Positions 3,595 through 63,996 of a stretch of DNA of 64,000 nucleotides are shown here, piece by piece. The notes under the pieces are model-generated. The model was not told where the DNA came from. It was given only the letters and a program-made list of their open reading frames with translations, and made no database searches. The translations under genes were made by a program, and so were the position numbers. Position 1 is the first letter of the stretch; every line of letters begins with the position of its first letter. The DNA comes from Alphaproteobacteria bacterium (lineage in GTDB: Bacteria > Pseudomonadota > Alphaproteobacteria > Rs-D84), in assembly GCA_017617915.1 (NCBI GenBank), contig JAFZVH010000053.1, positions 355 through 64,354 on the forward strand, in the 5' to 3' direction.

Positions 3595-4922
3595 CTTTCA
3601 AACGGATTTTCTGATTTTTCGTATTCAATGGTAATTGGCAAGTGTTCCAAATGCAGCGCAGTTGCAATACCGCGACGCAGATAACGTGTATAAGATTCAG
3701 GTATATCAGATGCACCACCAACATTTATTGTTATGCGCATTGGATGACGCCCAGTTTGCCGCGCAAATTTTATTTTCATCGGGCGTTTAAGACGCGACAT
3801 AGGTGGCTGGCGCAGATTTACGAGTTCCCCAACGATTTTATTTATTAAACTGGTTGGTGCGGTTGCGCCTGCGATATCAAACTGTTCATAAATTCTTTTG
3901 AACATATTTTGTACACCTGTTCCCTTTTCTGCAGAAATCGCCAAAATCATAGGCTTTATAATCTGGTGAAAAGAATTTGCAAATTTGTGTTTTAACTTTA
4001 ACAATTTTTCGTCGCGTTCGTCTGGTTCTATCAAATCCCATTTGTTTAGTGCCACACATAAAATCTTGCCCGCATCGTAAACACGCGCCGCAATCCCCAA
4101 TGCCTGATTTTCAATATCACGCGTTGCATCAACAACCAAAACAACAACATCAGATTTTTCAATGGCGTCCAAAGATTTTAATGCAGACAAAGTTTCAACA
4201 TCATCGCGAACATTCGATTTGCGGCGCAAGCCCGCAGTGTCCATCAACAAAATATCGCGTCCATAAAAACGCGTAGGAATTTTAACGGTGTCGCGAGTGA
4301 CCCCAGGCAGGTCTTTTACAATCTGGCGATTTTCGCCCAAAACACGATTTACCAATGTGGATTTTCCAACATTTGGCTGACCTAAAATTGCGATTTTTAC
4401 GCGTCTGTCGGGTTCGGTAGTTTCGGTTTTGCTGTCTGGTATATTTTTTTCCAAAAATTCAAAAATTTCATCAAAACCAGCCTTGTGTTCTGCGGAAATC
4501 ATCACAGGATCGCCAAACCCCAATTTATAAAATTCGTGTACATCAGACAGCCTTTTACTGGATTCTGCTTTGTTTATCAGCAGTAATATTGGTGCCCGCG
4601 TTTTGCGGCGAACGGCACGTGCCCAAGACATATCTTCGGCAAGCAATCCTGCGCGCCCATCAACAACAAATAAAATTGCGTCGGCATCCGATATCGCGTC
4701 CATTGCCATATTGGTTGAATCTGCGGCAATGCCATCGCGTGCGGATTCTAATCCTGCCGTATCAAACAGTTGATATTCTGGATGCCCAGAAACAGTGCCA
4801 CCAATTGTGTCGCGTGTAACCCCGGGGCGATCGTGAACCAGTGCATCACGCGTTCCAGTTAGTGCATTAAACAAAGTCGATTTGCCGGTATTTGGCCGAC
4901 CGGCGATAGTTATTTTTGCCAT
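3591..4922 (-). CDS. der: ribosome-associated GTPase Der/EngA
   Basis: Two tandem GTPase domains with P-loops GRPNTGKS and GQPNVGKS. The ORF-track TTG start at 4958 runs through a TATAAT-like box, so I prefer ATG 4922 (MAKITIAG). Confidence 0.9.
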   Translation of the reverse strand: MAKITIAGRPNTGKSTLFNALTGTRDALVHDRPGVTRDTIGGTVSGHPEYQLFDTAGLESARDGIAADSTNMAMDAISDADAILFVVDGRAGLLAEDMSWARAVRRKTRAPILLLINKAESSKRLSDVHEFYKLGFGDPVMISAEHKAGFDEIFEFLEKNIPDSKTETTEPDRRVKIAILGQPNVGKSTLVNRVLGENRQIVKDLPGVTRDTVKIPTRFYGRDILLMDTAGLRRKSNVRDDVETLSALKSLDAIEKSDVVVLVVDATRDIENQALGIAARVYDAGKILCVALNKWDLIEPDERDEKLLKLKHKFANSFHQIIKPMILAISAEKGTGVQNMFKRIYEQFDIAGATAPTSLINKIVGELVNLRQPPMSRLKRPMKIKFARQTGRHPMRITINVGGASDIPESYTRYLRRGIATALHLEHLPITIEYEKSENPFES

Positions 4923-29260: not shown

Positions 29261-29397
29261 AATTCCCCTTCGCTGGCGAAGGGGAGGGCCACTGGAAGTG
29301 GCAGGGTAGTGGTTCACGCGCAGCGTGAATAGTCGGTGTTGCCGACAACAACTACCCCGTCGGGTGCTACCCGCCACCCCTTCTTGATAAGAAGGGG
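29261..29397 (+). repeat. multi-hairpin element, copy A
   Basis: P1 CCCCTTCG-ctgg-CGAAGGGG (29265-29284). P2 CCACT-gga-AGTGG (29289-29301). Conserved GGGTAGTGG. P3 TTCACGC-gca-GCGTGAA (29313-29329). GTCGG-tgttg-CCGAC (29332-29346). CCCCTTCTT-gat-AAGAAGGGG (29377-29397). Confidence 0.7.
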
Positions 29398-29447
29398 ACT
29401 TGTGGGCAGGGTGTCGCCAAAGAAATAAGAAGAAAGGAGAAAGGAAC

Positions 29448-62201: not shown

Positions 62202-63548
62202 ATGAAAAAATCGCTAATCTATATATTTCCTGCTATTATGTGCTTAGTGGGAACACATGCAGATGCTGTAACGGGTTGGGGAAACAATAAATCTGTTGCC
62301 AATGCATGGGGGACCGTTGCGCGTGGTTACACAATGAGCGAATACAAGTATGCTGATACAGATGAAAATTTGTGCATTGCAAATGCTGATCCTGACAACG
62401 GTTGTACAGAAGAAGAAGCAAACGAATTGTATGAATGTGGTACATCGGCAAATGGTTGCAAGTATAATGTAAAGATAACCTACACTGACTATCAGTTAAA
62501 ACTTGCCACCGATACCTTGTTTCAACAGGTTTTGGGTACCTTGGAACGCGAGGCCCAAGCGCAATATAATGCCAAACTGACCGAAGAACAAAATATGTGT
62601 GTCGCGGCAAACAGCGGTGGTGTTATGGGGCGCAAAGATATGACCGGTACATATCGCTGGGTAAAATTGAAAAAGAATAAAGTTCCAAAAAGTTATGCGA
62701 CCGCAGGTCTGACAGACAAAGATATAGATAAAAGTAATGATTTGTATGGCTCGTTCTGTGCGGCGCGTGTAACACTGCAATCGGACGATGCAGATATCCA
62801 AGAAGCGATTCGTTCGGGCTCCGCTTGGGCAACAACATATTTTGCGGTTGGCGATGTGTTCACTTGCGGTTCTTGGATTCCACAAGATGAATTGCGGAAT
62901 ATTGCAGAGACAGTTGCGAAAAGAAAATATGGCACAAAAAGCGATGCAACAGATTTAAGTTTGGAACAAATGTGGTGGACCGCGGGTGCCACATTGTTGG
63001 GAACAGGACTTTTTGCCGGTGGTGCAGATTTGTTACAGACCAAAACAGGACTGGGCGGTTTGATTAAGACAAGCAATCCACTGTCAAGTGACCAGCAGAA
63101 AGTTATTGGCTCTTATCAGGATGCTATGAGTGTTTACAGTACCGCGAAGTGTTCTGCTGGCAGTGAATCTAAGTTTGTTGAGTCGTATGATGGCTTTGCT
63201 GATGGAAAGACTCTGCGTAGTTATAGGAAAGACGCTAATGGCACAGCAACTTGTGGAGACGTCAAAACTTATTATACAGACTTAGAATCCAAGGTGAATG
63301 GTTATAATACGTCTTCGAATGATAAAAGGCGCCGTTGGGTTGATGTGGGTTTTGGTGCGGCGGGTGGTATTACGACTTTGTTAGCAACACGTGCATCTAT
63401 GCGGGAAGCAAATGCTAATCAGTGGGATAAAGATACCCAGGCGGCCGTTGATGAATTTATGGCCAATGTAGGCAGTCATATATTCTGCTTTATTGGTGCC
63501 GAGGAAGCCGGTACCTTTGGTGATGTCGTAGAAGTCGGCATGGAATAA
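62202..63548 (+). CDS. exported/membrane hypothetical protein
   Basis: Signal peptide MKKSLIYIFPAIMCLVGTHADA. Two Gly-rich hydrophobic segments (WWTAGATLLGTGLFAGG, VGFGAAGGITTLLA). Several Cys pairs. Confidence 0.7.
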   Translation: MKKSLIYIFPAIMCLVGTHADAVTGWGNNKSVANAWGTVARGYTMSEYKYADTDENLCIANADPDNGCTEEEANELYECGTSANGCKYNVKITYTDYQLKLATDTLFQQVLGTLEREAQAQYNAKLTEEQNMCVAANSGGVMGRKDMTGTYRWVKLKKNKVPKSYATAGLTDKDIDKSNDLYGSFCAARVTLQSDDADIQEAIRSGSAWATTYFAVGDVFTCGSWIPQDELRNIAETVAKRKYGTKSDATDLSLEQMWWTAGATLLGTGLFAGGADLLQTKTGLGGLIKTSNPLSSDQQKVIGSYQDAMSVYSTAKCSAGSESKFVESYDGFADGKTLRSYRKDANGTATCGDVKTYYTDLESKVNGYNTSSNDKRRRWVDVGFGAAGGITTLLATRASMREANANQWDKDTQAAVDEFMANVGSHIFCFIGAEEAGTFGDVVEVGME

Positions 63549-63617
63549 AATCCCCTTCGCTGGCGAAGGGGGGGACCGCGGGACGCGGTGGGGTAGTGGT
63601 GTCACACGCAGTGTGAC
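63549..63617 (+). repeat. multi-hairpin element, copy B
   Basis: P1 CCCCTTCG-ctgg-CGAAGGGG (63552-63571). P2 CCGCG-gga-CGCGG (63576-63588). Conserved GGGTAGTGG. P3 GTCACAC-gca-GTGTGAC (63601-63617). Confidence 0.7.
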
Positions 63618-63996
63618 AGTGATGTATGTTATGAAGATACCTGCTAATAAATCTTTGCGTGGACGTGCGCGTGAGTTGCGCAAGAATTCCACTTTGGCCG
63701 AAGTGTTGTTTTGGAATGTTGTTAAAAATAAACAATTAAATGGTTTAGATTTTGACAGGCAAAAGGTAATAGGAAATTATATCGTTGATTTTTATTGCCC
63801 ACAATTGAATGTTGTGATAGAGATTGATGGTTGTTCGCATGCAACTAAACAAGAATATGATAAGTCACGTGATGAATATTTGAAGTCTTTGGGGATGCAT
63901 ATATTGCATGTGTATGATGAAGATGTAAAGCGTGATATGGACGGTGTTTTGCGTATGGTGTCTGGTTTTTGTGAAAAGTATTTGCAAGATAAATGA
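63613..63996 (+). CDS. DUF559 (Vsr/restriction-endonuclease-like fold) domain protein
   Basis: ARELRKNSTLAEVLFWNVVKNKQLNGLDFDRQKVIGNYIVDFYCPQLNVVIEIDGCSH is the typical DUF559 core. The start is uncertain (GTG 63613, ATG 63622 or ATG 63631) and overlaps hairpin P3. Confidence 0.75.
   Translation: MTVMYVMKIPANKSLRGRARELRKNSTLAEVLFWNVVKNKQLNGLDFDRQKVIGNYIVDFYCPQLNVVIEIDGCSHATKQEYDKSRDEYLKSLGMHILHVYDEDVKRDMDGVLRMVSGFCEKYLQDK

Follow-up and report, generated by a model that had tools for sequence, protein, structure and literature searches.

A dispersed, structure-conserving DNA repeat whose inverted pairs form the ends of a small DUF559 cassette

Two multi-hairpin loci in the 64,000-nt window (the whole stretch of DNA that was analysed, C29:355-64354) belong to a dispersed repeat and are not an RNA gene. 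The unit of this repeat, two hairpins followed by a linker (H1-H2-linker, ~46-52 nt), is scattered through the reduced rumen/gut alphaproteobacterial genus Candidatus Enterousia. A small cassette with a DUF559 (Vsr-like) nuclease gene has inverted pairs of units as its ends; elsewhere the repeat is found with no such gene. The window, from a MAG of 726 kb (58 contigs, 88% complete), shows the gene-bearing and gene-less forms of one repeat frame; the genus adds hundreds of copies that keep their pairing and a base-triple relation, filled and empty sites, and identical variants at unrelated loci. The best explanation, and one that we consider rather likely, is that the element is a DNA-level repeat whose inverted units serve as the terminal repeats of the cassette, and that it is selfish DNA dependent on its structure.

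One repeat frame with and without a gene

The two loci, copy A and copy B (Table 1), had been described in an initial annotation as sharing an ordered set of hairpins, and a direct read agrees: both have the same 20-nt H1, then H2, the linker GGGTAGTGG and a second variable hairpin (P3). The claimed identity of H1 is not due to chance, since the 20-mer occurs twice in the window and 0 times in 100 shuffles; the linker, said to be conserved, is a 9-mer found twice in the window against a shuffle mean of 0.09. Both copies directly follow a stop codon, as had been noted, beginning 3-4 nt after it. The reported compensatory changes are also present, with three pairs differing in H2 (two if the stem is read as 5 bp) and two in P3, and pairing is kept throughout.

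Our covariance model matched the window at three places, 29265-29310 (+), 29351-29397 (-) and 63552-63597 (+). The first two matches make copy A an inverted pair of units separated by a gene-free spacer of 36 nt. The second H1-like hairpin that the initial annotation saw in copy A is thus real, but it is part of a complete inverted unit. The spacer sits where copy B holds a DUF559 ORF, and the right-end sequence of copy A is found again 3' of that gene, just beyond the window. Copy A is a gene-less version of the copy B frame, comparable to a MITE or REPIN doublet. Like a MITE, it has terminal inverted repeats around a short non-coding element; inspection of the sequence at its ends revealed no direct repeat or short target-site duplication. 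As single-stranded DNA, copy A folds at -45.3 kcal/mol, compared with -22.3 for shuffles (z = -8.7). Directly 3' of it, at 29402-29420, GTGGGCAGGGTGTCGCC is similar to TGCCCGCAGGGCGGGGTGTCGC, the H2 and linker portion of a different unit subfamily (contig C21:15700-15722), and is probably the remnant of a second element.

Table 1. Features of copy A, copy B and the copy B cassette (window positions unless stated)
Feature	Sequence	Position	Strand	Basis
Copy A left unit		29261..29312	+	Direct read; covariance-model match, E 5.7e-10; 20-mer and 9-mer counts above all shuffles
Copy A left unit, outer end	AATT	outside H1
Copy A H1	CCCCTTCG-ctgg-CGAAGGGG	29265-29284
Copy A H2 (variable hairpin)	GCCACT-gga-AGTGGC	29288-29302
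Copy A linker / G-rich mirror block	GGGTAGTGG	29304-29312
Copy A central spacer with two more hairpins, P3 and P4		29313..29348	+	Sequence and fold
Copy A P3	TTCACGC-gca-GCGTGAA	29313-29329
Copy A P4	GTCGG-tgttg-CCGAC	29332-29346
Copy A right unit, inverted		29349..29401	-	Covariance-model match, E 1.4e-8
Copy A right unit, C-rich linker	CAACTACCCC	29349-29358
Copy A right unit, H2' hairpin	CGGGT-gct-ACCCG	29361-29373
Copy A right unit, H1' hairpin	CCCCTTCTT-gat-AAGAAGGGG	29377-29397
Copy A right unit, outer end	ACTT	outside H1'
Last 63 nt of gene upstream of copy B, including stop codon and AAT		63489..63551	+	Repeated after the right end of the cassette
Copy B left unit (left terminal repeat of DUF559 cassette)		63548..63599	+	Direct read; 20-mer and 9-mer counts; covariance-model match, E 3.5e-10
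Copy B H1	same as copy A	63552-63571
Copy B H2	ACCGCG-gga-CGCGGT	63575-63589
Copy B linker	GGGTAGTGG, same as copy A	63591-63599
Copy B P3	GTCACAC-gca-GTGTGAC	63600..63617 (hairpin 63601-63617)	+	Direct read
DUF559 ORF (Vsr-like PD-(D/E)XK nuclease)		63622..63996	+	Pfam PF04480; PDB 3HRL
Cassette right terminal repeat	CCCTACCCC-GTCGGGTTTCACCCGCC-A-CCCCTTTCCAGAGGTAAGGGG	window-equivalent 64001-64050, outside the window		Contig read; covariance-model match in L021 1873-1919 (-)

Copy B is the left end of a cassette with the DUF559 nuclease ORF at its centre. The likeliest start of this ORF is the ATG at 63631 (MKIPANK...), which gives a protein of 121 aa, and it ends at the TGA at 63994-63996. 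It matched Pfam PF04480, which places it in the Vsr fold, with an E value of 4.7e-32 (110.5 bits; cut-off 20.6), and PDB entry 3HRL, an 'endonuclease-like protein', with an E value of 3.8e-16. The right terminal repeat directly follows the ORF and has the arrangement of the right half of copy A. In the DUF559 proteins of the unit subfamilies CCCCTTC and CCCCTCC, His replaces the Arg of the motif G-x-x-V-L-R-F-W (MHILHVY in the window protein). Canonical members, including 3HRL and the copy in the queA gene of the source genome, have the Arg version (...VLRFW), so the nuclease activity of the His-bearing subfamily (...ILHVY) is not assured.

The end of the gene upstream of copy B is repeated exactly (63/63) at C29:64405-64467, 51 nt past the window end. 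Equivalent pairs occur in relatives (58/63 identical in G129, 35/38 in G054 and 79/84 in G007), and behind intergenic DUF559 cassettes the final 38-84 nt of the upstream gene appear a second time (loci L066, L024, L045 and L064). The differences within pairs are mostly synonymous (in G007, 4 of 5 differences; in G129, 3 of 4 codons), which suggests that the two copies evolved in separate lineages, each as a genuine gene end. A serS-like ORF of G054 now terminates at a TAA within the H1 loop.

Past the 63-nt repeat, a second, gene-less element adjoins the cassette. This doublet is identical to copy B through H1*, H2, linker, P3 and 'AGT', and then has a 23-nt spacer exactly at the position of the ORF; its H1 is split by a nested terminator-like insert. 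The insert (C29:64476-64522, window-equivalent 64122-64168) consists of CGGGCCCCG, an A/T-rich stem-loop ending in a T-run, and TGGGTG. Elements of the form CGGGCCCCG...TGGGTG occur inside H1 loops and elsewhere, in both orientations across the genus (L022, L008, L040, L139, L144, L145, L153), and may represent a mobile terminator-like module. A 16S rRNA gene, within which the contig ends, begins ~1.2 kb 3' of copy B (C29:65240-65331), placing the repeat cluster between a 451-aa exported-protein gene and the rRNA operon.

Pairing and a mirror block define the unit

The covariance model, built on H1-H2-linker, was run on 150 genus genomes with at most 42 copies scored per genome. It found ~650 copies in 73 genomes, including 10 in the source genome, and none in the other 77. 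A search for the pattern H1...GGTAGT in 151 genomes gave 70 matches, spread over 25 of them, and 0 for the pattern reversed as a control. The source genome is low-copy for the family, yielding only module-sized BLAST matches to copy A and ~15 C4...G4 hairpins; its third copy is a solo unit on the minus strand (C45:37137-37182). As in REP/REPIN families, short palindromic units are scattered as singlets and inverted doublets. They also form tandem arrays, lie in both orientations, and occur between genes as well as in frame within them.

Several variants of this organisation were observed. The P3 hairpin is confined to the sub-lineage G000/G129/G055. G019 carries tandem arrays (L007 / L025, G019:C2:1-2177; G019:C31:26483-26823), one with a period of 148 nt comprising one unit and the first ~33 DUF559 codons, and another with a period of 72 nt comprising H1 and a 52-nt spacer in alternating orientation. 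In G104 (L139-L152), the unit is one module of a ~200-nt mosaic repeat with BIME-like organisation and at least 14 copies, in the order AGAGAGCA runs, GCGCGCC hairpin, unit, GTCCCTGCGGGGCAATGGA, TACCGGC hairpin.

Each unit comprises a pyrimidine/purine hairpin (CCCCTTCG/CGAAGGGG), an H2 of free sequence and kept pairing, and a G-rich block, GGGGTAG(TGG). H1 and the linker are almost invariant within a subfamily. The 47 distinct H2 sequences analysed (at least 47 are known) almost all fold, at a mean of -5.4 kcal/mol compared with -1.5 for shuffles. The proposed conservation of structure was borne out, the sequence of the hairpins meanwhile drifting: among 96 distinct copies from many genomes, in an alignment fitted to the model and therefore favouring the structure, all six H2 pairs change on both sides and covary, 90.5% of cells pair, and the covariation score is 0.299, compared with 0.091 for shuffles and at most 0.069 for slid controls.

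A conserved fold of this kind could belong to a functional structured RNA, such as a 3'-UTR stabiliser, an atypical terminator or an sRNA derived from the 3' ends of exported-protein genes. REP-type repeats stabilise upstream mRNA, the fold of copy A is strong, and copies A and B and the third copy in the source genome all begin 3-5 nt after a stop codon on the coding strand. We nevertheless regard an RNA element as highly improbable. At gathering score, Rfam returned only tRNAs; on the element itself, two matches (E up to 1) reached 19.5-21.9 bits against cut-offs of 50-54.6, and we take them as chance. The hairpins have no U-tract, as had been stated, and intrinsic terminator and promoter scans gave nothing above shuffle expectation. 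Units lie in either orientation, sit within queA and nth in frame, and bracket a nuclease gene as its terminal repeats. The supposed tie to 3' ends of exported-protein genes fails because other copies follow unrelated genes or lie within genes. Where the initial annotation had left open an RNA or a DNA hairpin, the structure is supported and the discrete multi-hairpin RNA element is not. An RNA role could still arise as a side effect of the DNA repeat. The case also serves as a caution that hairpins which covary and follow a stop codon are not necessarily RNA elements.

The G-rich block that follows H2 mirrors the H1 purine arm (CGAAGGGG and GGGGTAG), giving the triplets G.G-C, T.A-T and A.A-T. 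Under the published rules for intrastrand triplexes (ITxF; PMC4666352), a pyrimidine block, the purine block complementary to it and a third strand yielding G.G-C, A.A-T or T.A-T triplets follow one another, each 6-15 nt long, with at most one mismatch; CCCCTTCG, CGAAGGGG and GGGGTAGT give 7 compatible triplets and 1 mismatch. Loop 1, at 4 nt, conforms to the 1-6-nt loop rule. Loop 2 consists of the H2 hairpin (15-25 nt) and spacers, which means that the unit would escape the published finder. The base triple covaries within the genus, T-A going with A in 61 rows and C-G with G in 27, with 3 exceptions, a relation that rests on two main states. Across 76 units that span many sequence types and come both from the genus and from further families of Alphaproteobacteria, mirror compatibility was 0.905, compared with 0.78 for permuted partners, and 0 of 200 permutations were as high. 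By sequence, then, the unit has the grammar of the BoxC/PIT/TM (TMECO) intrastrand-triplex DNA repeats (Hoyne et al. 2000; defined in Holder et al. 2015, PMC4666352), with the second loop grown into a hairpin; the triplex itself is a prediction. According to Holder et al. (2015, PMC4666352), RNA does not form purine-motif triplexes; the conserved mirror relation, if functional, points to single-stranded DNA and weighs further against an RNA element.

This structure suggests how selfish DNA of this type might be maintained. With good probability, the units persist and spread because their propagation needs a folded single strand, made up of the hairpins and possibly a purine-motif triplex. Copies with broken stems would then found no new copies, and propagation through a folded single strand would explain why pairing is kept while sequence drifts.

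Units, DUF559 genes and movement between sites

The association between units and nuclease genes extends well beyond copy B. We examined 30 DUF559 loci, from 23 of 61 genus genomes: nearly all full-length genes are preceded by [H1][H2][G-rich block] and followed by the reverse complement of that arrangement, and most of 29 DUF559 loci in other alphaproteobacterial families are bracketed likewise. The H1/linker subfamily tracks the nuclease clade, with CCCCTTC/GTAGTGG accompanying proteins of at least 63% identity, CCCCTCC most of those of 47-57% identity, and CCCCGCC those of ~35% identity. Mapped onto a nuclease tree that contains near-duplicate rows, flank type required 16 changes, compared with a mean of 34.6 after shuffling (0 of 200 shuffles as low), a degree of clustering that physical linkage alone would predict. 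Among the 150 genus genomes, 45 carry both units and DUF559, 28 units only, 7 DUF559 only and 70 neither, counts that do not amount to a statistical test because the genomes are related. Outside the genus, DUF559 has been grouped with Vsr and I-Bth0305I (PMC3424549, Table 1), appears in one table row as enriched among predicted inversion targets (PMC9881135), and includes a Caulobacter protein that causes an SOS response and is active on DNA in vivo (PMC12907096). The papers searched on DUF559, COG2852/PF04480 and Enterousia yielded no description of a pairing with repeats.

Comparison of relatives revealed sites with and without the element. In G129 the site orthologous to that of copy A is empty: the two genes are separated by 16 nt there, compared with 187 nt in the source genome. 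Exact searches for both flanking gene ends in metagenome and genome collections gave no matches. In queA, cassettes consisting of units and nuclease lie in frame at two positions, after ~residue 33 and ~residue 250. At either position some species have no cassette and others have one, drawn from different cassette subfamilies; in G057 both are filled. The source genome itself carries one in-frame DUF559 cassette in queA (C26: about 4180-4690, L050), and interrupted queA genes remain open frames of 503-626 aa (relatives L026, L027/L044, L029, L036, L041, L046). No intron family was found with Rfam, and by inspection of the alignment the in-frame queA cassettes lack intein junction residues. A solo unit with the H2 of copy B lies in frame in nth (endonuclease III) of G163 (L060, G163:C4; L158, L159), where it adds ~18 residues, IPFAGEGGDRGTRWGSGE. 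In-frame units of this kind explain odd annotated peptides, such as PFAGEG, inside queA and nth.

Identical units also recur at unrelated places. The exact copy A unit, its own H2 included, is present in two other contexts, on rumen metagenome contigs where its flanks are unrelated. For copy B, the exact unit is present in at least 4 further contexts in other MAGs (at least 5 with the window locus), which include the flank of a DUF559 gene, an in-frame position within nth and a doublet lacking the gene. Lineages of a unit copied from locus to locus can therefore be told apart by their H2 variants.

These observations bear on whether the repeat might instead be a non-mobile DNA motif maintained by the host, for example a replication-pausing or recombination site, shaped by concerted evolution and with DUF559 merely a frequent neighbour. 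TM repeats do mark unstable E. coli loci without known mobility genes (PMC4666352), and the tandem arrays and duplicated gene ends beside units suggest local errors of replication or recombination. A host motif is nonetheless very improbable given the identical 46-nt variants at unrelated loci in different MAGs, the filled and empty sites among relatives and the insertions nested in H1 loops. In addition, the 77 of 150 genus genomes that have no copy argue against a housekeeping role.

What drives the copying is a separate matter. A RAYT/Y1 (HUH) transposase was rejected as the engine, since PF01797 had no match in the source genome while controls were positive in 6 known genomes. The DUF559 nuclease may recognise or nick its own flanking units, perform the step that needs the folded strand and so drive copying or homing, although we consider this rather unlikely. 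An extended form of the idea, and a doubtful one, is that DUF559 proteins are dedicated partners of BoxC/TM-type folded repeats and that each would recognise the hairpin-plus-triplex ends around its own gene and, through nicking, spread the cassette and the forms derived from it without the gene to further places, among them in-frame positions within housekeeping genes such as queA.

Alternatively, units and nuclease could be separate players, the units spreading or arising through host processes or an unknown enzyme and the DUF559 gene homing into the centre of an inverted doublet, so that copy A would be an 'empty' target and copy B an occupied one. Units outlive or outnumber the gene, as 28 of the 98 genus genomes in which no DUF559 was detectable carry them. 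G104, which has at least 14 units of the copy A/B subfamily, has no cognate DUF559: the two DUF559 genes found there do not adjoin them, and the one that was read has flanks of another subfamily. The 23-nt spacer of the doublet near copy B lies exactly where the ORF sits in the copy B cassette, homing endonucleases of the Vsr fold exist (I-Bth0305I, grouped with DUF559 in PMC3424549; PMC3239194), and Holder 2015 (PMC4666352) found no mobility genes beside E. coli TM repeats. Against independence, almost every DUF559 gene comes with its own pair of units, even in queA, where empty alleles show no prior doublet, and flank type tracks nuclease clade. We judge separate players, the main rival reading, to be unlikely too.

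Under the preferred reading, that of a selfish, structure-dependent DNA repeat, the data offer a candidate pairing, testable in itself, of one small protein with one ~50-nt DNA. To our knowledge, BoxC/PIT/TM repeats have been recognised for ~30 years with no partner protein or mechanism, and we know of no settled role for DUF559, a large nuclease-fold family of 'unknown function'. Were the partner-enzyme reading true, the cassettes would constitute a new class of mobile element, one that has a PD-(D/E)XK nuclease as its driver and is recognisable by the shape of the DNA and not by its sequence.

Comparison with known repeat and homing systems

In REP/REPIN-RAYT systems, reportedly described by Nunvar in 2010 and by Bertels and Rainey in 2011, short palindromic units are found singly or as inverted doublets throughout the genome, inverted cognate repeats flank an enzyme gene present in single copy, and repeat subfamilies go with enzyme subfamilies. 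All three features recur here, with the difference that the putative enzyme is a Vsr-like PD-(D/E)XK nuclease (DUF559) in place of a Y1/HUH transposase. The initial annotation had counted a match to a REP/BIME or MITE family with terminal repeats against its proposal and had suggested testing for insertion polymorphism, and in substance such a family is what we found. No counterpart was found for the short target-site duplications and transposase-encoding IS of MITEs; instead, cassettes are accompanied by 38-84-nt duplications of the upstream gene end, and the gene-bearing form encodes DUF559 and no transposase.

The likeness to BoxC/PIT/TM repeats lies in the succession of a pyrimidine block, a complementary purine block and a mirroring G/A/T-rich third block with G.G-C, A.A-T and T.A-T triplets, and in the occurrence of multiple dispersed copies, often as inverted pairs, at variable loci with no transposase nearby. 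The Enterousia units differ in having loop 2 enlarged from 1-6 nt to a variable 15-25-nt hairpin, in their sequence (CCCCTTCG... compared with CCCTCTCCC...), in lying also in frame within genes, and in forming pairs that bracket a DUF559 gene, a link not stated in PMC4666352.

Rickettsia palindromic elements (RPEs, PMC10969869), which we compared by description, are likewise palindromic, reside in a reduced alphaproteobacterial genome, and are inserted in frame in housekeeping genes and read through, as are the units in queA of the source genome and its relatives and in nth of G163. RPEs differ from the present family in carrying no gene for a nuclease, and descriptions of them mention no triplex-type mirror block.

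Finally, Vsr-like (EDxHD) homing endonucleases such as I-Bth0305I (PMC3239194, PMC2677866) share a superfamily clade with DUF559 (PMC3424549, Table 1), and they too are small selfish genes that are present or absent at fixed sites in host genes. Those enzymes are housed in group I introns or inteins, whereas here there is no intron or intein, and hairpin/triplex inverted repeats enclose the DUF559 ORF, which may stand free or be translated through.
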